DNA from: a virus | Strand: one strand, 5' to 3' | DNA length: 64,000 nt | IMG/VR virus record: IMGVR_UViG_3300028025_003409 | Location: 45,058 to 109,057 of that record | Shown: piece after piece, positions 3,639 to 45,516 of the stretch | Position numbering within the stretch: the first letter of the stretch is position 1 | How the letters are laid out: every line of letters begins with the position of its first letter | The notes under the pieces: generated by a model | The model's input: only the letters and a program-made list of their open reading frames with translations | Told to the model about the DNA's origin: nothing | Databases searched by the model: none | Translations under genes and position numbers: made by a program

Positions 3639-4202
3639 TTATACCACAGAAATAAGTAGTTCTACTACTTTCTGTCCGACCACTTCTACCCAGTTGGAGT
3701 TGTTTAGTTCGATTGCATTGACAATAATCTTAAGCGCTCTGACCTGATTGTCTGTAATGATCTCTAAAGATTTCACGGTAGTTATGATTGGCAAATCATT
3801 GACAATAGACTTTTGAACATTGATCTTATCAATAGTGACGGTTGCAACAAGGTCTTCTGGGACAATGCTAATAAGTGGAATAATAATCTGAGCATTACCG
3901 CCTATAAAGTCAGAAACAACGCTCTTACTAGTAAAGTTTGGGATAATCTTTAAGATCTGTCTCCAACTGTTTACTCCATCAGCATTCTGATACTGGTACA
4001 AAAACAGGTAAGACTCATCTTGTGGATCTACATTTATATACATGTCTAAAAGGTTTGGACTTAGTTCTGCTGTATTTGGAAAACCATTTCCAACAAACCA
4101 ATAACTTCCTCTTTTCCCTGTTGGACCAATATCAAGATCTACTGAAATTTTAGAAGGACCACCTAAAACAGTTATATCGTCTGTAGAATAAATCTCAGGC
4201 AT
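3639..4202 (-). CDS. putative virion structural protein
   Basis: GPTGKRGSYWFVGNGFP motif; context. Confidence 0.5.
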   Translation of the reverse strand: MPEIYSTDDITVLGGPSKISVDLDIGPTGKRGSYWFVGNGFPNTAELSPNLLDMYINVDPQDESYLFLYQYQNADGVNSWRQILKIIPNFTSKSVVSDFIGGNAQIIIPLISIVPEDLVATVTIDKINVQKSIVNDLPIITTVKSLEIITDNQVRALKIIVNAIELNNSNWVEVVGQKVVELLISVV

Positions 4203-6286: not shown

Positions 6287-7120
6287 GTGAAAAATAGAAC
6301 TGAGTTCTCTTCAGCAGCATTTCTTTTTAGAGAAAAACCATTTATCAATAGCATATCAAGTAGCAATTTAGAATATATTAAAGGCGAGTCTTATTCTTAC
6401 TATATTAATGACCAGCCAAGTAAAAAAACAAAAGACGATATTGAGTATAAACTAAATAATTATCTTTTTAGATCTGATGATTTTTGCAAAGAAGATTCTG
6501 GAGATAACTTTTTATTTGCTGGATGCTCACAAACTGTCACATTAGGGCTACCACTAGAGTTAAGTTGGGCTAACAAAGTTAATTCTAATTTTGATAAAAA
6601 TAAGTATATTAACATATCTGGAGTTGGTCTTGCCATTGATGCAATAGTTAGCAATATAGTTCACTACATTGACTTGTTTGGAAAACCTAAGGCAATTATT
6701 GCTTTATTCCCAGATCACTACAGGGTTACAGAAATAAAGCATGACACAATAACAACAGACTGGCTAGATCCAAGAGAATATGATAAAAATGTTGATAGAA
6801 TAGAAGATGCAATATTTAAAGACTATCTTTCTTTTAAAAATTTAGAAATGATATGCAAAGCAAATGGGATACCCTTGGTCTATTCTAGTTGGCAGCCACA
6901 TACTGCTAAGGTAATAAAGAAGTTAACAGAAAAGTCTTTCTTGGAAAATGGATTTGATATATATGAAAACATTGATATAGATCTAAAACTTTTTTCAAAG
7001 AAAAATAGCAAGTATCCTCATTACTGGGAATATGCAAGAGATGGTGTCCATTACGGAGAAAGAGACAATCTTATGTTTGCTCAATCATTTACCAATAAAC
7101 TAAAAGAGTTAGGTTTCTAA
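6287..7120 (+). CDS. SGNH/GDSL-like hydrolase family protein (paralog 1 of 4)
   Basis: FAGCS block and ARDGVHYG (DxxH) block; similar to genes at 43.6-47.8 kb. Confidence 0.6.
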   Translation: MKNRTEFSSAAFLFREKPFINSISSSNLEYIKGESYSYYINDQPSKKTKDDIEYKLNNYLFRSDDFCKEDSGDNFLFAGCSQTVTLGLPLELSWANKVNSNFDKNKYINISGVGLAIDAIVSNIVHYIDLFGKPKAIIALFPDHYRVTEIKHDTITTDWLDPREYDKNVDRIEDAIFKDYLSFKNLEMICKANGIPLVYSSWQPHTAKVIKKLTEKSFLENGFDIYENIDIDLKLFSKKNSKYPHYWEYARDGVHYGERDNLMFAQSFTNKLKELGF

Positions 7121-10321: not shown

Positions 10322-10498
10322 TTAGATACACTCCTCACATGGGCATTGTGGGAATTCTGCATCTTGCTTAATGCGATTAGCAAGGGCAATAACCTTTTTA
10401 TAGGTATCGGCAGACGCACCCCTAAAGGATACTACCTTACCCTCGGCTACTAATTGAGCAGCCTTATTTATTTTTTGTTCTAGTGTTAATGTAGTCAT
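10322..10498 (-). CDS. small hypothetical protein (58 aa, below ORF track cutoff)
   Basis: AGAAAGGTGG RBS; MTTLTLEQKINKAAQLVAEG...QCPCEECI. Confidence 0.6.
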   Translation of the reverse strand: MTTLTLEQKINKAAQLVAEGKVVSFRGASADTYKKVIALANRIKQDAEFPQCPCEECI

Positions 10499-10552: not shown

Positions 10553-10626
10553 CCTAGGTTATTTGCTCTTATTTGCTACGCTCACCCGATAATCGGTTTA
10601 TTTGGTAGGCTCAGAGGCTCACTAGG
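10553..10626 (-). ncRNA. double-GAGCCUAGCAAAUAA structured RNA, copy A
   Basis: outer stem CCUAG/CUAGG, inner CCGA/UCGG hairpin, downstream of a TTGATA-17-TAGACT promoter. Confidence 0.55.
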
Positions 10627-10736
10627 ATTTTTCTTTATTTAATTTTTCTTACTATGTAAGTCTAGCAAAAAATCTAATAAATATCAACTTACTAGCCAGT
10701 ATTCTCATATAATGAGACGCTTGGGCTATGTGATTT

Positions 10737-10798
10737 AGGTCACTTATTTGCTAGGCTCATATAACTTTTTGTTATCTTATTTGCTAGGCTCATAACCT
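10737..10798 (-). ncRNA. double-GAGCCUAGCAAAUAA structured RNA, copy B
   Basis: outer stem AGGUUA/UGACCU, inner AUAAC/GUUAU hairpin, two exact motif copies, downstream of TTGACT..TATTAT. Confidence 0.6.
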
Positions 10799-10819
10799 TT
10801 TATCTCTATTTAATTTTTC

Positions 10820-11065
10820 TTATACTAGTATAATAACACATCTACCCCTAAAAGTCAAGTCCTAGCACGGCGTGTCGTGTGTGATATGCGTCACATGGGG
10901 ACGTGCATGATCTACCCCCTATACAGGTACCCCCTATCTAGGACGTGCCCTGTGGATAACCTGTGTATAACTATAGTGGTATACATCACATGTGTGCTAC
11001 ATCACAATGTCCAATTTATACCTTTTATACCCTCGTAAATGTCAGACCCCCCTGTTATACTTACT
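10820..11065. promoter_or_regulatory. divergent control hub of the early region
   Basis: leftward TTGACT promoter, CGGCGTGTCG, TGTGA-N6-TCACA (10880), GGACGTG x2, TACCCCCTAT x2, DnaA boxes (10951, 10962), rightward TGTCAG-N10-TATACT (11040). Confidence 0.75.
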
Positions 11066-11113
11066 AGTATAAAGAAAGTCAGAAAAGGTTTCTGAACTAG
11101 AAAGGACAATAAA

Positions 11114-11287
11114 ATGTCAAACAGTATTTTCGGTCAAGGTTTCGCTAAGGTTAGCGATTACCCTAAAGGTCTAATGAACCTCTGCCCTTGTGGGCAGGTA
11201 GTCTTAGCACCTGCTAAGTATCACGCAGGTCAGCCTTGGTGGGATAACCCCAACAAGTGTAAAGAATTATTCGAAGGAGTAAAATAA
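11114..11287 (+). CDS. small hypothetical early protein
   Basis: AGAAAGGA RBS; MSNSIFGQGF...CPCGQ... Confidence 0.6.
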   Translation: MSNSIFGQGFAKVSDYPKGLMNLCPCGQVVLAPAKYHAGQPWWDNPNKCKELFEGVK

Positions 11288-11416
11288 ATGAACTTAGATG
11301 AATACAAGCAAATGATAGAGGCTCAACGCCTCACCTCTTTAGCAATAGCGTTAGACGCTCTACGCAAATCCAATGCCATAATGGAAAACACTTTCAATTT
11401 AGAGGAGAATGAATAA

Positions 11417-11683
11417 ATGAAAACACTTCAAGAAAAATTAGACCTTGCTGCAAAAGCAGTTGAGCCAGTTTTAGCAGAATTGCTAAATGAGGTTGATGAA
11501 AAAACCGACTATGAATTAGAACAAGAATTGCAAGAGCAATTTGATGAATACATAAATGATTCGCATGACCCAGTAATGATTGCAGGAATTTTATTTTATC
11601 CTGCTGACATTCTAAAAGAATGCGACCCAATCGCTTATCGTGTTTTTCTAAATGATTTTGAATCGTATTTAGAAAACGAATAA
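11417..11683 (+). CDS. acidic hypothetical early protein
   Basis: GAGGAG RBS; ILKECDPIAYR motif. Confidence 0.6.
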   Translation: MKTLQEKLDLAAKAVEPVLAELLNEVDEKTDYELEQELQEQFDEYINDSHDPVMIAGILFYPADILKECDPIAYRVFLNDFESYLENE

Positions 11684-11760
11684 ATAAAAACCAAGATCGC
11701 AGAAATAAAACTCTGCGATTTTTTGGGACGTCCCGTGTGATGCGAATCACATTCAAAATA

Positions 11761-11801
11761 CGGCGTGTCGTCTTGACTTTTTGAGATTTCTCTGCTATAC
11801 T
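11761..11801 (+). promoter_or_regulatory. SigA-type promoter with upstream GTGTC (GACAC) element
   Basis: CGGCGTGTCG-tc-TTGACT-17-TATACT with extended TG. Confidence 0.8.
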
Positions 11802-12048
11802 TCTAGTATAAAGAAAATTGAGAAAGGTTCTCAAATTGAAAGGAGTCCAAATGGACTATAACGAATACTATGATGAAATTTATCTAGAAATCTATGAGGA
11901 GTTTGGCGCTGAAAGCGTATCAGACCCAGCCTACGCTGAATCTCTAAAAAAGTGATGTAAATCACACAACGCCTACGGCGTGTCGCCTTGACTTTTCAGG
12001 GTATGTGTGATAGTCTTACTACATAAGAAAAACTAAATAAAGGACAAA

Positions 12049-12116
12049 TTGGCTAATGAGCCTAAGCAAATAAATGTGATACAAATCACAGTGAGCCTTA
12101 GCGAATAAGTAGCCGA
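12049..12116 (+). ncRNA. double-GAGCCUAGCAAAUAA structured RNA, copy C
   Basis: outer stem UUGGCUA/UAGCCGA, inner UGUGAU/AUCACA hairpin, downstream of TTGACT-17-TAGTCT. Confidence 0.55.
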
Positions 12117-12173
12117 AATGTCAGCCCCCAATGGTAAGATAGTCTTATCAAACAAACGAAAGGAAGTCTAAAA

Positions 12174-12371
12174 ATGACTTACACTATAACACTAGAAACC
12201 TTTTCAGGTTCTACAAAAAAAATCAACCTTGCCTCTAAGGGTGCGGTTGCTCAATTCATCTCAACTTATCCAACTCAACTACCTGTTGGCGTTGCTGTAA
12301 AAATCGCTTGCGATACCCTCGGAATTAGTGGCACACTTCGTGGCACTTCTACACTTACAAAATCAAACTAA
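12174..12371 (+). CDS. hypothetical early protein
   Basis: GAAAGGAAG RBS; follows TGTCAG-N10-TAAGAT promoter at 12119. Confidence 0.65.
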   Translation: MTYTITLETFSGSTKKINLASKGAVAQFISTYPTQLPVGVAVKIACDTLGISGTLRGTSTLTKSN

Positions 12372-12390
12372 AGAATAGGAAATAAAATAA

Positions 12391-12597
12391 ATGACTAAAG
12401 TAGAACACTCTCTAAAGTTCGTAACCGAGTTCGATGAAACTCACCCAGTAGCACTACAAGCACTATCTATCCCTCACTCAGATTTGGTTGCTATGCTTGA
12501 AGGAATGCTAAAAGATTTGCTAGTGCCTGCCCTCGGTCCTGTACTTGATGAAATAAATGCTCGTGGCACTTATGCAATTCTAAAGGTGGCCGAGTAA
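12391..12597 (+). CDS. hypothetical early protein
   Basis: AGGA RBS, operonic. Confidence 0.6.
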   Translation: MTKVEHSLKFVTEFDETHPVALQALSIPHSDLVAMLEGMLKDLLVPALGPVLDEINARGTYAILKVAE

Positions 12598-12782
12598 TGA
12601 TGACACGCAAGGACTATGTTGCAACTGCTGAAATTCTTTCATCATTCAAAGATTTGATAGGTGATGAATTTACTTTTCACGACTTAGTTGATGAATTTGG
12701 TTCAATGTTTGAAGCAGATAATCCAAGATTTGATTCAACTAAATTTTTTGAAGCGTGTAACAAAGACACTTACTAAATAAAA

Positions 12783-12810
12783 AAATCCTGAGCAAGATTT
12801 AAAACTGCTC
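12783..12810 (+). ncRNA. small H-type pseudoknot element, copy 1
   Basis: AAAUC/GAUUU and GAGCA/UGCUC interleaved stems. Confidence 0.6.
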
Positions 12811-13302
12811 CACACTCAAAATTTTGGGACGTCGCGTTCGGGCGTGTCGTCCACATGACGCAGATCACATTCAGAATTGAGCGTGAGTTATCCACATGAC
12901 CTACATCACATTTCAAAATGTCCGATTTGTGGCATTACTGGTCAGTAGATGTCAGACCCCCCTGCTATACTTACTAGTATAAAGAAAGTCAATCAAGGTG
13001 ATTGAACTAGAAAGGAATTCAAATGAATTCAACAATTATCAAGTGTGTAGAACACACACCCTTCAAGTCTGCTATCTCAGAGGTTGCAGATACACAATTT
13101 ACTTTTTGTGAAATTTGTGAAAATAACATTGAGCGTTGGTATAACGATACCGACCCTGAGCGTCTACCAATGTGGACAGATTGGAAGGTATCTAAATGAT
13201 AGACTTCGTAAAACAATTAGAATTAGAAAACTATCTTGCAGACGAGCAAGTAGACCCACTAGCAAAAATGCTAGATGAACTAATAAAGAAAGGAGAATAC
13301 AA

Positions 13303-13539
13303 ATGAGTCTATCCCTTGCTAATAAAATCGCAAAAGATAAATTCTTTCTGCCCCCTTCAAAATACATAAACCACAAAGTCGTGGAGATTGTATCTTTAAA
13401 TGAGGATAGCGGTATCGCTACTGTAATCCTAGAAAAATACACAATAGGCAGAAATGCTAATGTGTATAAAAATAATAATGTGTTCACAATTGAATTGCCT
13501 TATTCCGAATTTCAAAATCTAAATGGTTGGAGTGAATAA
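13303..13539 (+). CDS. hypothetical early protein
   Basis: AAAGGAG RBS. Confidence 0.6.
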   Translation: MSLSLANKIAKDKFFLPPSKYINHKVVEIVSLNEDSGIATVILEKYTIGRNANVYKNNNVFTIELPYSEFQNLNGWSE

Positions 13540-14182
13540 ATGAGTACCTATGTACCAATTAAATCTGTATGTGGTGCAGTAACTACCACAATTGACATCT
13601 ATGACATTGAGTTAAATCCTCACGGAGTAATCTGTTGCGATAACTGCAAGTCAATCATTCTATGCCGTAAGGCTTGGGATTTTCTATACAAGGAGAATAA
13701 GTAATGCCACTATTTGAATTTACAACATTTATAAATGTTGAAGCAGAAGACTATGACTCTGCTATTGCTATGTTTGACTCTAATTTAGAGTATGGTGGAA
13801 TTCGCAGAAGCGATGTTTATGTCGCAGAAATTGAGGAAAAGTAAAATGAGTTTTTATCAAACCTTTTTTGAAAGTGGCAACGCATTGTTTTGGTTTTCAA
13901 TGATCTGCTTAGCAAGTGGATTTTATTTATTTGTAAAAGAGTAGAAAAACGGGACGTCGCGTTCGGGCGTGTCGCCACGCTGTGAGATTTATCACATGGC
14001 TTGAGCGTCTCAGTATTTGGACTTACTGGCTAGTAACTTGATAATTTGTGAGTAATAGGCTAGACTTACATAGTAAGTAAAAATAAATAAAAGAAAGTCT
14101 ATCCCACTACGGCGTGTCTAACCGAAAATGTCAGACCCCTATGGTAGGATAGAATTATCAACAAAAAGAAAGAGGTTGGCAA

Positions 14183-14389
14183 ATGTCAGCAAATGTCTAT
14201 ACAATAGAACACCTACTTGTAGGAACACAATACCGCTCACGAACACTATCGGGAGAAATTATCTCAGCAGAGAAACACCCTAACGCAGTTTGGTATCAGG
14301 GTTGCGAAAGTTATCTAGTGGAAGTGCGCCCTAGTAATTTTGGAAAAGTCGTATGTCGCACAGTAGCAGTAAAGGTAGAAAATAACTAA
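14183..14389 (+). CDS. hypothetical early protein
   Basis: AGAGG RBS after TGTCAG-N10-TAGGAT promoter at 14129. Confidence 0.65.
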   Translation: MSANVYTIEHLLVGTQYRSRTLSGEIISAEKHPNAVWYQGCESYLVEVRPSNFGKVVCRTVAVKVENN

Positions 14390-14662
14390 TGGGATACATA
14401 GAGATTTTTAGAATTGACAATGAGGGTGCAGGTTGGATAGACTTGGACAATGCAACACCTAGCGAATTGCTAGACCTAGAAATTGGCTTATTTCAGGAAG
14501 GGGCTATCTAATGGGAGTAATGAAAGAATTGCACTTAGAGATAACTACTTGCGACCTATGCTATGGCACAGGTTGGCTATACTTTGGCAATAGCGAGGAC
14601 TTTGATACAGAGTCTTGCGATTGTAACCCACACCAACTATTTATAACTAAGGAGAATAACTA

Positions 14663-14881
14663 ATGAACGAATACCTATACTCAGTAACAACAACTAATGA
14701 CGGAGAGGCTAAGCCGAATTGGATTGGTCGCTACTCAGACGCACTAAGTGCCGTTGAAGTTTATCAGAGATTTATTGACCACGGATTTGCTAACGAATTC
14801 CGTACAGTAAATTTATCAGAGCCTAGTGGCAAAATGCATACAAAAATTTTGTATCGCAGTGGAATTGTGGGAGGTAAGTAA
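14663..14881 (+). CDS. hypothetical early protein
   Basis: AAGGAG RBS. Confidence 0.6.
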   Translation: MNEYLYSVTTTNDGEAKPNWIGRYSDALSAVEVYQRFIDHGFANEFRTVNLSEPSGKMHTKILYRSGIVGGK

Positions 14882-15042
14882 ATGGACATAACTACTTTTG
14901 CAAAAGGAATGAGCAAGATTGCTCCGAATTATGGCATAGGGTATGATAACTATGGTCAGGTTATTATTTATACTAACCTAAAAGAAACTGAAAATAATCA
15001 GTATGCAGAAATGTCAGATAACGATTTTGAGGAGAATAAATA

Positions 15043-15330
15043 ATGGGATCAGTTACAGCAATTGGATTAGCGGATAGCGTATTGGATTTAGAAACTCAAT
15101 TGGCGTATCACTTACAGGGTAATCACTATCCACCCGTACCACTTTCTATGGTTCAGCCTTGCATAGAAGCAATTGACGCATACTATGATGAGGACTATGA
15201 CCGATTTATTGCTATGCCTGAAGGCGTATTCTATAAGGGAATGAGCCACGCACCTGCCCACGCAATTGTAGACCAACACCACTTGTCTTGGTTTATTGAC
15301 CCAGTAGACGAATTTGAAGATGAGGAATAA
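15043..15330 (+). CDS. hypothetical early protein
   Basis: GAGGAG RBS; HLQGNHYPPVP motif. Confidence 0.65.
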   Translation: MGSVTAIGLADSVLDLETQLAYHLQGNHYPPVPLSMVQPCIEAIDAYYDEDYDRFIAMPEGVFYKGMSHAPAHAIVDQHHLSWFIDPVDEFEDEE

Positions 15331-15331
15331 A

Positions 15332-15574
15332 ATGAATGCTACAATGAGCGACATGGAACTAATCGAGGCAGATACACTTGCACCAGACCAACTAATGATT
15401 GGTGATTTAATAAAAGTAAACAATGACATTCTTGAAGTTATTTTTATTGAAAGTGATTCTACTGGAGATAACTACGATGTACAAGTAAAAAATGAATTTG
15501 ATGAATTAGAAATAATTCAATTTGCTTATACTGATTCTATTCCATTGTATGTTTTTATTGACTACGATGAATAA
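15332..15574 (+). CDS. small acidic beta-barrel-like hypothetical protein
   Basis: PDQLMIGDLI motif; GAGG RBS. Confidence 0.55.
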   Translation: MNATMSDMELIEADTLAPDQLMIGDLIKVNNDILEVIFIESDSTGDNYDVQVKNEFDELEIIQFAYTDSIPLYVFIDYDE

Positions 15575-15799
15575 GTAAAACTATTTTTATGCACTTCCCC
15601 GCATAAAAATGGGACGTCCCGCAGTCGGGCGTGTCTGTGTATATCCTGTGGATAACTATGTGCTACTCATGAGTAACCCTTTAAATATTTCTTTAAGATA
15701 GTTTATTTTATTTTCCCCGATTCTGGGCAAAATTTTTTGTGATTTTTATCACACGATCAGGATTTGACATTTTTATGATATGTGTGTTAGTATTGTTAT

Positions 15800-15946
15800 A
15801 TGAAAAAAACAAATGAGGAACTCCGCAGGCTTATGGAACTACGCCGTAGCAACGCTGCCTCTGCCGTGCCTTCTAAAAGGGCTTACAATCGAAAGAAATG
15901 TCAGTCCGAACTGTTACAATATAAATATCAACAAAAAGGAGAATAG
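15800..15946 (+). CDS. small basic leaderless protein
   Basis: ATG 6 nt after TTGACA..TAGTAT; MKKTNEELRRLMELRRSNAASAVPSKRAYNRKK. Confidence 0.55.
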   Translation: MKKTNEELRRLMELRRSNAASAVPSKRAYNRKKCQSELLQYKYQQKGE

Positions 15947-16109
15947 CCCATGACCTACGAAAACGATGAAATGCTAGATGAATACTATGCAACTGTATGC
16001 CCCTCATGCAAAGAAAATGCGGTAGACGCATATGAAGATAAATGCACTCATTGCTTACTAGAAGAAATGTCTGTCCACTATAACGAAGACATTGCTCTAG
16101 AAATGAGTC

Positions 16110-16850
16110 TTGGCCTTGACTACTGATACACTTAAACTTAAACGCTCTAATGATAGAAAGGTGGCTAATCTTGTCACAAAAAATGGAAAGCAAGCCGCAA
16201 TCGCAAATACCTTTGGACTACCTGCTGGAAAGGCTTTCTCGTGCCCTGGTGCCACTAGCGTATGTGAAAGCGTGTGCTATGCAGGAAAACTCGAAAAACT
16301 CTTCAAAGGCGTAAAGGCTAACCTCTTACACAATTGGACCTTACTTAAGGACGCCGATCAATTAACTATGGAGACACTGTTAACTGAAATGATTAACGAT
16401 TTCCGTGCAGACTGTGTAAAGAAAGACGCCCCTATGCTATTCCGTATCCATTGGGACGGAGATTTCTTTAATGATATATACACTCATGCATGGAAGAATG
16501 TAATCAATAACAATCCTGATATTCAATTCTGGGTATATACCCGTGTTAAGTCTGCTGCACTTATACTTAAGGATGTATCTAATCTATCATTGTACTTCTC
16601 TGCAGATAGTGAGAATGTAAAAACCGCCGTTGACTTAAAAATTAATAGTGGCGTACGTATGGCATACCTTGCTAAGAACTTTGCTATTGGTCAAGCCGAT
16701 GTAAAAGAAATGATAGGCAGACCTGCTGCTAAGTGTCCTGAGAATAATAAACAAATTCCACTTATCTCAACTAACGGTAGCGCTTGCGTTTCATGCTCAC
16801 TTTGTGTATACTCTAAGAGTGATATCATATTCTCTGCGAGTAAAAAATAA
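16110..16850 (+). CDS. GP88-like / radical-SAM-like Fe-S protein
   Basis: SCPGATSVCESVCYA, FRIHWDGDF, C-terminal CP...CxxCxxC. Confidence 0.7.
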   Translation: MALTTDTLKLKRSNDRKVANLVTKNGKQAAIANTFGLPAGKAFSCPGATSVCESVCYAGKLEKLFKGVKANLLHNWTLLKDADQLTMETLLTEMINDFRADCVKKDAPMLFRIHWDGDFFNDIYTHAWKNVINNNPDIQFWVYTRVKSAALILKDVSNLSLYFSADSENVKTAVDLKINSGVRMAYLAKNFAIGQADVKEMIGRPAAKCPENNKQIPLISTNGSACVSCSLCVYSKSDIIFSASKK

Positions 16851-18799: not shown

Positions 18800-18985
18800 T
18801 TTTTAAAATCCCTCAAAATTTGGGACGTCCCGCCGACCAGTCATTGTCAAATCGACACGCCGTTTACGAAGGGTGATCTTTGCCACAATGTTCGATTTAT
18901 CCACATCTAACTATCCCGATTTGCATATGTCAGTCAGTCCTGCTATACTTAGAATTCAACAACAAAAAGAAAGAAGGAAAAACCT

Positions 18986-20008
18986 ATGGCACATGACCTA
19001 GAAACTCAAAACGGAAAAACATCTTTTGCGTCTTTCCGTGAACCTGCTTGGCATGGATTGGGTACCGTATTCACAGAAGAGAAAACAACCGCAGAAATGC
19101 TAGAGGCTGCAAACCTCAATGGTTGGAATGTTCGTCTTGAGGATTTGGAAACCCCTACACATCTAACAAGCGACAAGGCGTACCAATATGTCTTGCGTAC
19201 AAATCCTACCGACAACACACAAACCGATATTCTTGGTGTAGTTGGTGAGCGATACCATGTTTTGCAGAATGAAGATTTATTCTCATTCGGTGATAACATT
19301 CTTGACGGCGGAGGTCGTTGGGAGACTGCTGGCTCAATCAAGGGTGGTCGTGTCGTGTTCGGTGCATTAGCACTAGAGCGTGAAACAATTCTTGACCCTA
19401 ATGGTGTTGCAGACAAGGTAAAAACTTATTTGCTCATCAACACATCACATGATGGCTCAATCGCTATTCAAGCAAGCATTACACCCGTTCGTGTCGTGTG
19501 CGCTAACACTCTCAATCTTGCGCTTGGTGGCGTAGGTCGTAAGAAGAATAAGGGTATCAAGCAATCTTTCAAGATTCGCCATACACAAACTGCAAATGGT
19601 AAAGTGCAAGTTGCTCGTGAGACTCTTGGTCTTGCTAATGCATACATGAACGAATTCGATATCATGGCTAAGGCAATGATTGAGAAAGAAGTTTCTGCTA
19701 AGCAATTCAACGACATCATTCTTGCTGCTTACGCTAAGCCTGAAAAGGATTCTAAGGGTTCACTAAAGAAGTGGGAAAATAAAGTTGATGTTATCAACGA
19801 TATTTACACTGGTGAATTCAATGGAATGATTGCGGGTAATGCGTGGGGTGCTTTCAATGCACTAACCGAACGCCTTGACTGGTATCGTTCTGCTCGTGGT
19901 GGTTCTAACGAATCTATCCTTGCAAGCGCAAGCGGATTTGACCCTGCTATCAACGCAGAAAAAAATCGCTTACTAAAAGTTGTGCAGAATGTAATGTCTC
20001 TCGCATAA
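18986..20008 (+). CDS. DUF932/DUF945 phage-plasmid family protein
   Basis: PAWHGLG, LGVVGERYHVLQN, WETAGSIKGG, SHDGS, RVVCANTL, IRHT. Confidence 0.85.
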   Translation: MAHDLETQNGKTSFASFREPAWHGLGTVFTEEKTTAEMLEAANLNGWNVRLEDLETPTHLTSDKAYQYVLRTNPTDNTQTDILGVVGERYHVLQNEDLFSFGDNILDGGGRWETAGSIKGGRVVFGALALERETILDPNGVADKVKTYLLINTSHDGSIAIQASITPVRVVCANTLNLALGGVGRKKNKGIKQSFKIRHTQTANGKVQVARETLGLANAYMNEFDIMAKAMIEKEVSAKQFNDIILAAYAKPEKDSKGSLKKWENKVDVINDIYTGEFNGMIAGNAWGAFNALTERLDWYRSARGGSNESILASASGFDPAINAEKNRLLKVVQNVMSLA

Positions 20009-20123: not shown

Positions 20124-20314
20124 CAAGTAAATAAATATGCAACGCAATGTATAAAAATTTGGGACGTCCCCTGTGACTTACATCACATGAGATTTTTAAC
20201 TAAATAACTTTACGATAGGGTGATATTTTCCCCAAAAATTCTTTACGATAGATTTGACTTTTTCCCCAAACCATGCGATAATTAATATATAACCCACTAA
20301 AAAAGGAAAACCCC

Positions 20315-21248: not shown

Positions 21249-21479
21249 ATGTGGAGTAGGTATACCTTTGTTTGTGATCCTGATGAGTGTGATGCCCTGG
21301 TTGAGTTTACTGCTAGGGATGACTTTGGATTTCCCCTGGGAGTTGTCGAAATGAGATGCCCTTGTGGTAGGATGTTAAACTATATTAGTTATGAAGAAGC
21401 CTATCAACCGATCATTACAGATGTGAGCAAGGTCACACCCCGTACAGTTGTCAAAATCGACTCGAACCCGTATAATTAA
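21249..21479 (+). CDS. small Cys-motif protein
   Basis: CDPDEC...CPCG; GAGG RBS. Confidence 0.6.
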   Translation: MWSRYTFVCDPDECDALVEFTARDDFGFPLGVVEMRCPCGRMLNYISYEEAYQPIITDVSKVTPRTVVKIDSNPYN

Positions 21480-44687: not shown

Positions 44688-45516
44688 AATCTATTATAGC
44701 ATTAATTAGATTAGTTGACCATACCTTATGAGCGTTTAGCCCTTGGTGACCATCTCTTTTAATGACCTCGTTTTGCTTATATTCAAAAAATTCAGGGTGA
44801 TAATTAAATTCAATAAAGTTTTTAGAAAAGTTTAATTCTGACAATACAGAGTTTTCTAATCTACTCCATGTGCTCCAAAATAATTTTATTTGATTTATTC
44901 TACAATATTCTTCAAACATATTTATATATAAAATAAAATCTATCATTGAGTCCATATATAGTTTTCTGTTTTCTTTTATTTCTAAATGATTAAGATCTTT
45001 CCATTCAATTGTATAAGAGTTTTCGCTATCCAACCACTTAAAAACTCTTGCAACATCTGGGAAAAGTACTACGAAGGCATCTGGCTTTCCAAATTCTTTA
45101 ACATAAAGCAAACAGTTCATTATTATTTTTTGAAATCCAAAGTTGTCAATAGATAGATTATAGAATCCGTCCAGACTTAGTTCATCCTTAATAGCATTAT
45201 ACGTCATTCCAGTCCAACTATCTTCTATGTTGCCACCAATTCCCTCACCTTCAGAGCACCCAGCAAAAACAAACCTATTTTTTTTACTATCTGTTTTTTT
45301 TACAAAATCGTCTGACCTAAAACCCAGACTGTTGTAATGATAGGAAACAGAGCCATCATCTTCTGGAACTGGGATGTTGTTCATTTTAAACATAGGAAAT
45401 TCTTTTGGATGAATTGCAAATGTAGCGTTATGGTGCTCTGAACCTTCAAGGTCAGAGAAAAAGAGAGAGTTACTATTTGTATTGAGTATTGCTTTTACTA
45501 TAGAGTCTTTATCCAT
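44668..45516 (-). CDS. SGNH-like hydrolase (paralog 3)
   Basis: FAGCSEGEG, RDGHQG. Confidence 0.65.
   Translation of the reverse strand: MDKDSIVKAILNTNSNSLFFSDLEGSEHHNATFAIHPKEFPMFKMNNIPVPEDDGSVSYHYNSLGFRSDDFVKKTDSKKNRFVFAGCSEGEGIGGNIEDSWTGMTYNAIKDELSLDGFYNLSIDNFGFQKIIMNCLLYVKEFGKPDAFVVLFPDVARVFKWLDSENSYTIEWKDLNHLEIKENRKLYMDSMIDFILYINMFEEYCRINQIKLFWSTWSRLENSVLSELNFSKNFIEFNYHPEFFEYKQNEVIKRDGHQGLNAHKVWSTNLINAIIDYAKNNK

Follow-up and report, generated by a model that had tools for sequence, protein, structure and literature searches.

A previously undescribed family of predicted structured leader RNAs, built from a repeated internal-loop module, in large low-GC actinophages

We describe here a short structured RNA element that occurs three times in a 64,000-nucleotide stretch of viral DNA (positions 45,058 to 109,057 of the IMG/VR record IMGVR_UViG_3300028025_003409), referred to below as the window, whose numbering is used throughout. 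The phage genome to which the window belongs, as its right-hand part, measures 109,057 bp and has direct terminal repeats. Judging from the comparison of homologous sequences, the three copies are members of a previously undescribed family of structured leader RNAs. Reading of both strands verified the copies at 10553-10626 on the minus strand (element A), 10737-10798 on the minus strand (element B), and 12049-12116 on the plus strand (element C), each beginning about 26 nucleotides (nt) past its inferred transcription start, which agrees with the original prediction of three copies placed shortly after promoters. Its further proposal of a structured RNA on the transcribed strand, with stems that are unrelated in sequence and yet pair, was also borne out, since the stems it named do pair and covariation is strong. 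The motifs that it had depicted as free single strands, however, pair through their centers into a covarying middle helix, with two or three identical asymmetric internal loops about it. This mutual pairing of the centers of the 16-mer motifs, as read from the alignments, is our main new finding, and the true unit of the family is, on the same comparative grounds, an asymmetric internal loop of UGAGC opposite CAAAUAA and not a pair of free single strands.

In element B, the outer stem AGGUUA (10798-10793) with UGACCU (10742-10737) encloses a first motif, UGAGC-CUAG-CAAAUAA (10792-10777), an inner hairpin, AUAAC/GUUAU (10775-10761), and a second copy of the motif (10759-10744). The CUAG at 10787-10784 pairs with that at 10754-10751 to give the middle helix, on either side of which lie the two inverted UGAGC x CAAAUAA modules. 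Since the center of this 16-mer is self-complementary, two direct copies fold back on each other into two identical loops related by a pseudo-twofold axis. Element C likewise has two modules, arranged around a 5-bp middle helix formed by CUAAG (12062-12066) and CUUAG (12097-12101); these are the centers of the motifs UGAGC-CUAAG-CAAAUAA (12057-12073) and UGAGC-CUUAG-CGAAUAA (12092-12108), between which lies the inner hairpin UGUGAU/AUCACA (12075-12090), and the outer stem is UUGGCUA (12049-12055) with UAGCCGA (12110-12116). Element A is a three-module form. Here the outer stem, CCUAG (10626-10622) with CUAGG (10557-10553), encloses an extra outer pair of half-motifs, UGAGC-CUC (10621-10614) and GAG-CAAAUAA (10568-10559), so that UGAGC (10621-10617) faces CAAAUAA (10565-10559) and CUC/GAG serves as a joining helix. 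Two inverted inner modules then flank CUAC/GUAG (10608-10605 with 10579-10576), and the inner hairpin is CCGA/UCGG.

A covariance model of the family (R1) scored the copies at 68.2 bits (B; E, 1.5e-16), 67.9 bits (C), and 55.2 bits (A), with E values of about 1e-16 to 1e-12, and these were its only strong matches in the whole 109-kb genome, the next-best match having an E value of 0.04 to 0.07. A fourth, single-module-like match (19416-19468, minus strand; UGAGCC ... GCAAAUAAG; E, 0.04) lies antisense within a DUF932 gene and is probably due to chance. Folded in isolation, element C was clearly more stable than shuffled sequences (z-score, -4.2), whereas elements A and B were not (z-scores, -0.7 and -1.4). 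The case therefore rests on comparison rather than on folding energy. A simple mismatch count of the 15-mer in the window (6 observed versus 2.6 expected) was uninformative by itself.

Comparison was possible on a broad basis. The exact 16-mer TGAGCCTAGCAAATAA is present in at least 120 IMG/VR viral contigs and is nearly always paired, with two copies 25 to 34 nt apart on one strand, and a tolerant pattern applied to 122 sources yielded 149 elements, which include 112 distinct ones. Their outer-stem flanks came in 66 different versions and their inner hairpins in 62. The middle helix was nevertheless perfectly complementary in every one of the 112, although it occurs in eight versions: CUAG/CUAG, as in element B; CUAC/GUAG, as in element A; CUAAG/CUUAG, as in element C; and CUUAG/CUAAG, CUAAU/AUUAG, CUAGG/CCUAG, AUAG/CUAU, and CUGAG/CUCAG. 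A departure from CUAG/CUAG was seen in 23 distinct elements, and all 23 were compensated.

In a sequence-only MAFFT alignment of 97 distinct elements (alignment A2), 86.4% of the cells were paired in the three-helix structure, compared to 63.1% in shuffles. The covariation score of this alignment was 0.447 versus 0.110 in shuffles; none of 500 shuffles scored as high, and slid controls reached 0.03 to 0.13. The model-fitted alignment gave 88% paired cells and a score of 0.557, and RNAalifold independently yielded the same three helices. We did not adopt a slipped register in the RNAalifold output (G13-C56 and C14-G55), since covariation (G-C, C-G, and U-A) links the symmetric partner positions 19 and 51. 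G-U pairs are present in the stems, making the fold specific to the sense strand.

The letters of the loop are nearly invariant. UGAGC is always present, as are the C, U, A, and A of the long strand, with slight variation at long-strand positions 2 and 4, so that the loop can be generalized as a short strand, (R)UGAGC, opposite a long strand, CRANUAA(R), with closing helices of unconstrained sequence at both ends. The conserved internal loops are thereby held within a quasi-continuous helix of 13 to 20 pairs. Of 206 loops counted (103 elements with two loops each), 131 had A/G or G/A as their flanking residues and 7 had A/A, while G/G was never seen, a pattern which suggests a purine-purine closing pair. 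A core made of a U-A reverse-Hoogsteen and a sheared A-G pair is shared by UAA/GAN, loop-E (bulged-G), and k-turn loops, and the invariant short-strand G-A and long-strand U-A-A correspond to the letters from which those motifs build it; a core of this kind is predicted here. The short strand UGAGCC presumably resembles the nonbulged strand of a k-turn, the long strand having three extra bases. A canonical k-turn was rejected, since the long strand reads C-RAN-UAA and has an invariant U where a k-turn needs G (position 1b).

Several arrangements of the module exist. The three-module plan of element A was found in eight distinct homologs, with CUC/GAG, CUU/AAG, or CUCU/AGAG as the joining helix, and in a ninth (L053; CUCUUA/UAAGAG) that had been tallied with the two-module forms. 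Three loci have single-module hairpins (L072:2799-2842, L096:1562-1602, and L067:211-258), and one has a nested pair in the same orientation (L050:2766-2836). The pseudo-twofold two-module form, as classified by sequence, is thus the commonest arrangement and not the sole one. The existence of one-, two-, and three-module hairpins indicates that the functional unit is the loop rather than a displayed pair of single strands, and a strictly dimeric partner, as originally proposed, is not required.

The genome analyzed here has three elements, and R1 detected one each in five other complete relatives of 100 to 110 kb. WhiB, DnaE, RecA, and a carbamoyltransferase are encoded in the window, and because its DnaE shares 52 to 55% identity with those of Streptomyces phages of the Stanwilliamsviridae, the host is, on this protein similarity, very probably an actinobacterium. 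The elements belong to large low-GC actinophages. R1 found no match in four cultured Streptomyces phages picked by DnaE similarity (BillNye, Jay2Jay, Wakanda, and Blueeyedbeauty), and a blastn search of the 4 kb around the elements against 50,697 phage records returned none. Three scans of Rfam 15 (one of 5 kb and two narrow ones) likewise gave no family matching any of the three elements at E values up to 10. Among 185,579 species genomes, the paired motif was found in none except five metagenome-assembled genome (MAG) contigs that resemble phage DNA, one of which carries three copies. Given this confinement, neither a host origin nor a mimicked host RNA was found.

In an 85-kb contig (L130) from the MAG bin of an uncultured Bifidobacterium, elements lie at 2936-2997, 3909-3971, and 6739-6800, within 4 kb, and show the rare middle helices AUAG/CUAU and CUGAG/CUCAG. 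This contig is probably a phage contig; if the bin is correct, it hints that the family reaches beyond freshwater.

Each copy in the window follows its own putative promoter. For element B, the consensus scan gave TTGACT-17-TATTAT at 10830-10858 (minus strand), and for element A, it gave TTGATA-17-TAGACT at 10659-10687 (minus strand), both with TG before the -10 hexamer. The promoter of element C, TTGACT-17-TAGTCT at 11988-12016 (plus strand), was identified by reading the sequence and is conserved in C-type homologs. The layout of the copy B promoter, TTGAC-N17-18-TAnnnT, was also seen upstream of homologous elements. Among 128 distinct upstream flanks, 116 had a TTGAC-type or TGTC(A/G)G-N10-TAnnnT promoter pattern ending 16 to 53 nt before the element, compared to 6.7% of random positions, and the latter type was found upstream of 39 of the 128. 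A few homologs (L102, L107, L118, and L064) are promoterless and intergenic.

Between promoter and element lies an A/U-rich leader. That of element B (10799-10823, minus strand; ..AAGAAAAAUUAAAUAGAG..) is conserved with those of elements A and C in alignment A1, with a shared consensus of about AAGAAAAAYUAAAUARAG, and an AAAUAA-like leader occurs within the last 40 nt upstream of the element in 110 of the 128 distinct homologous flanks. We also observed that the leaders at 10799-10823, 10627-10652, and 12024-12048 (AUAACAAUUAAAUAAG-like) repeat the AAAUAAG of the long loop strand.

Downstream, a same-strand open reading frame (ORF) with a ribosome site follows within 260 nt in 134 of 141 elements. 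Considering about 150 homologous elements, the distance to the start codon is mostly 20 to 80 nt but ranges from about 20 to more than 200 nt, and in no case does the fold include the Shine-Dalgarno sequence. The adjoining ORFs encode 35 to 100 amino acids and fall into at least 37 unrelated families. In the window, element A is followed by a gene encoding 58 amino acids, without a family match (10322-10498, minus strand), whereas the next feature after elements B and C is another promoter, with no adjacent ORF. Directly after element C, reading of the sequence revealed a second promoter-like site, TGTCAG-N10-TAAGAT (12119-12140, plus strand); in the C type (30 loci), such a site lies between the element and the first gene. 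In the window, that gene encodes 65 amino acids (12174-12371, plus strand), belongs to a family of 30 loci, and heads a conserved same-strand early block which extends to about 16850. No PHROG function was assigned to the window genes adjoining the elements, and no terminator-like site was detected at or after element B or C.

Six conserved gene families lie 0.8 to 3 kb downstream of the element and on its strand, corresponding to 12597-16850 in the window. This block of small early genes, none with a known function, keeps its synteny in 40 to 63 of 120 related loci, where it invariably follows the element on the same strand, indicating that the element heads a conserved early block. Clustering of neighboring genes showed this conserved downstream synteny but no family common to all loci.

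Two further repeats were observed in the early region. The palindrome GTGA-N6-TCAC, the core of CRP/GlxR-type sites, occurs nine times in the window, compared to 0.67 expected, and all nine sites are in the early region (10730-10743, 10881-10894, 11737-11750, 11952-11965, 12076-12089, 13982-13995, 15739-15752, 20173-20186, and 21423-21436). One copy constitutes the inner hairpin of element C, and every C-type homolog preserves it as TGTGA-N6-TCACA; another overlaps the 3' outer stem of element B. A regulator of the next promoter probably binds the palindrome as DNA. In addition, CGGCGTGTCG is found immediately upstream of early-promoter -35 hexamers in 8 copies, compared to 0.2 expected (10868-10877, 11761-11770, 11976-11985, and 18853-18862 on the minus strand, plus one-mismatch copies), and it also precedes promoters in many related contigs, in either orientation. 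We consider it a candidate activator or repressor site.

The reading that we favor, while holding it with somewhat less than even confidence, is that the element is a cis-encoded leader which recruits a protein or RNA polymerase and, most plausibly, controls elongation. The early promoter would transcribe about 25 nt of A/U-rich leader followed by a single irregular hairpin, nested versions of which would yield one or three loops instead of two. The presence of one to three nearly invariant loops among helices whose sequence varies freely argues that something reads the loops, and each loop may dock one protein subunit or RNA polymerase itself. The bound complex would then work in cis on the early transcription unit headed by the element, its most plausible action being termination-resistant elongation through the many small-gene cassettes downstream, as at nut and put sites. 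The postpromoter position, the indifference to the downstream gene, the low copy number, and the location at the head of a multicassette block all point to an action on the transcript or the polymerase rather than to a gene-specific operator or a riboswitch, and the precedents of put RNA and of the RAT/CAT system discussed below favor a cis-acting recruitment site. A more specific version, which we regard as speculative and distinctly doubtful, is that the UGAGC x CAAAUAA loop is a self-sufficient module directly binding the actinobacterial elongation complex (or Rho), making the element a factor-independent, put-like processive antiterminator of repeated units.

Several observations weigh against control of elongation. 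No canonical intrinsic terminator was found on the plus strand from 12100 to 16500, which leaves a need for antitermination downstream of element C hypothetical, and the downstream cassettes have promoters of their own. The CAT (CAT_RBD, PF03123), L7Ae, and NusG domains are absent from the phage genome, and there is no RNA-binding domain in the 25 listed of the 42 Pfam families matched by 92 ORFs. Finally, the tandem elements (B followed by A, as well as those of L031 and L040) and the variable number of modules would suit avidity or titration equally well.

These last features bring up the decoy or sponge interpretation, which we consider unlikely but deserving of serious weight. According to it, the loops would titrate, at a very early stage of infection, a host protein such as a defense nuclease or a global RNA-binding regulator, either within an mRNA leader or after being cut off from it. 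Besides the avidity binding that tandem elements and variable numbers of identical modules would suit, the irrelevance of the downstream gene, the strong consensus promoters at the head of the early region, and the promoter instead of an ORF after elements B and C speak for it. The last of these had been noted in the original prediction and stands. A free-standing RNA is not supported: no terminator-like site that would yield a discrete small RNA was detected after element B or C, and most homologs form ordinary 5' untranslated regions (5'-UTRs). Most complete genomes, moreover, have a single two-module copy, which is few for a sponge, and with the motif absent from bacterial genomes other than the phage-like MAG contigs, no host RNA that it might mimic was found. 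Of the earlier interpretation as a whole, the structured postpromoter RNA is thus retained, while the free single strands, the free-standing transcript, and the obligate dimer are not.

It is improbable, in our view, that the irregular hairpin is an RNA processing or stability signal, that is, a cleavage or entry site for a host ribonuclease of the RNase III, E, or J type. The RNase III sites of the T7 early region provide a model for such a signal, and the position just after promoters (or, in a few promoterless homologs, between genes) and the quasi-continuous helix with its conserved internal loops would fit. Nevertheless, the 6 x 8 loops disrupt the helix far beyond what is known of RNase III sites, the 25-nt single-stranded 5' leader preceding the hairpin makes protection of the 5' end impossible, and a processing system would be expected to have more than a single copy per 100-kb genome. 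Less probable still is a translational operator, in which a phage-encoded repressor bound to the loops would silence the first gene of the unit. While the 5'-UTR location ahead of small early genes and identical loops fitting an oligomeric repressor are compatible with this idea, the widely varying distance to the start codon, the exclusion of the Shine-Dalgarno sequence from the fold, and the lack of an ORF adjoining elements B and C are not, and the unrelated downstream genes leave no autoregulatory logic. We give even less credence to a riboswitch-like sensor whose loop would bind a small molecule or ion and tune early transcription to the state of the host. Near-invariant loop letters in free helices are typical of ligand pockets, and pseudosymmetric and tandem aptamers are known, but the element has no expression platform (neither an overlapping terminator nor a sequestered ribosome site), no association with a gene function, no occurrence in cellular genomes apart from the five phage-like MAG contigs, and no Rfam match. 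The idea of a DNA-level site, in which the direct 16-mer repeats would be operators or, like the stoperators of L5, sites oriented with transcription, the stems being incidental, is very improbable and largely refuted by sequence comparison, because, in spite of the shared orientation and of the coincidence of the GTGA-N6-TCAC palindrome with the inner hairpin of element C and the 3' flank of element B, it leaves the compensatory changes between the repeats, the covarying outer stems and inner hairpins of free sequence, and the G-U pairs inexplicable, and because the homologs, instead of occurring in either orientation with unpaired flanks, always have pairing flanks and include no inverted copy among the 149 elements.

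The architecture is unusual, in that a single helix accommodates one, two, or three copies of a small internal-loop module facing either way, and its modular build points to a compact and portable RNA recognition unit. Freshwater phages of Actinobacteria are a very abundant and uncultured group whose gene control is essentially unknown, and this well-supported RNA family is an addition there. Should RNA polymerase or a termination factor prove to be its partner, the range of RNA-mediated antitermination would come to include Actinobacteria, and a put-like modular antiterminator would be the first such system outside the lambdoid coliphages. If the partner is a defense or regulatory protein, the element would represent a new RNA countermeasure. 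Either way, the module could be used as an orthogonal RNA tag, like the boxB or MS2 hairpins.

Among known systems, CsrB/RsmZ sponges, type III antitoxin repeats, and RNA anti-CRISPRs share with our elements the presence of repeated identical recognition units on one RNA. The motif described here, however, lacks the GGA of CsrB/RsmZ, and no terminated discrete small RNA is predicted; its repeats have 16 nt, with no endoribonuclease gene adjoining, compared to repeats of 34 to 36 nt plus an endoribonuclease gene in ToxI-like antitoxins; and the bacterial genomes scanned yielded no host repeat resembling it. The nut sites of lambda type (boxA plus boxB, acting with N and Nus factors) are likewise leader sites after divergent early promoters, corresponding to the leftward elements A and B and the rightward element C. 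Unlike nut sites, our three elements show neither a boxA-like run nor a conserved hairpin loop, their inner loop being free in sequence, and no N-like or NusG-like protein was recognized in the phage.

The put RNAs of phage HK022 (putL and putR) offer a closer functional parallel. They are transcribed just after PL and PR and consist of two stem-loops, about 70 nt in all, with conserved unpaired bases in helices of free sequence; they suppress termination in cis, acting on RNA polymerase through the zinc-binding domain of its beta-prime subunit and without protein factors (PMC9378689). Our elements resemble them in being structured nascent RNAs of about 60 to 75 nt on the transcribed strand just past early promoters, in numbering one to three per genome, in the irrelevance of the downstream gene, and in having conserved unpaired bases in free-sequence helices. 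In place of the two stem-loops, V shape, and triplex of put, they form a single composite hairpin of three coaxial helices with repeated internal loops. The two are unlike in sequence, the phage described here very probably infects an actinobacterium instead of E. coli, and its antitermination is a proposal.

The best structural analogy for the two-module form is the ribonucleic antiterminator (RAT) of the BglG-SacY-LicT systems, a hairpin whose two analogous internal loops are read by a symmetric CAT dimer (PMC3105407). Our element, too, is a hairpin with two asymmetric internal loops, here of 5-6 x 7-8 residues around a covarying helix of 4 to 5 bp. It differs from RAT, which overlaps an intrinsic terminator and acts by competitive folding, in that no terminator overlaps the elements, and also in the absence of PF03123 from the phage genome, in its loop sequences, and in the existence of one- and three-module forms. 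Taken together, these comparisons describe a new RNA family of a known general kind, the leader RNA elements of phages, with an unusual modular build.

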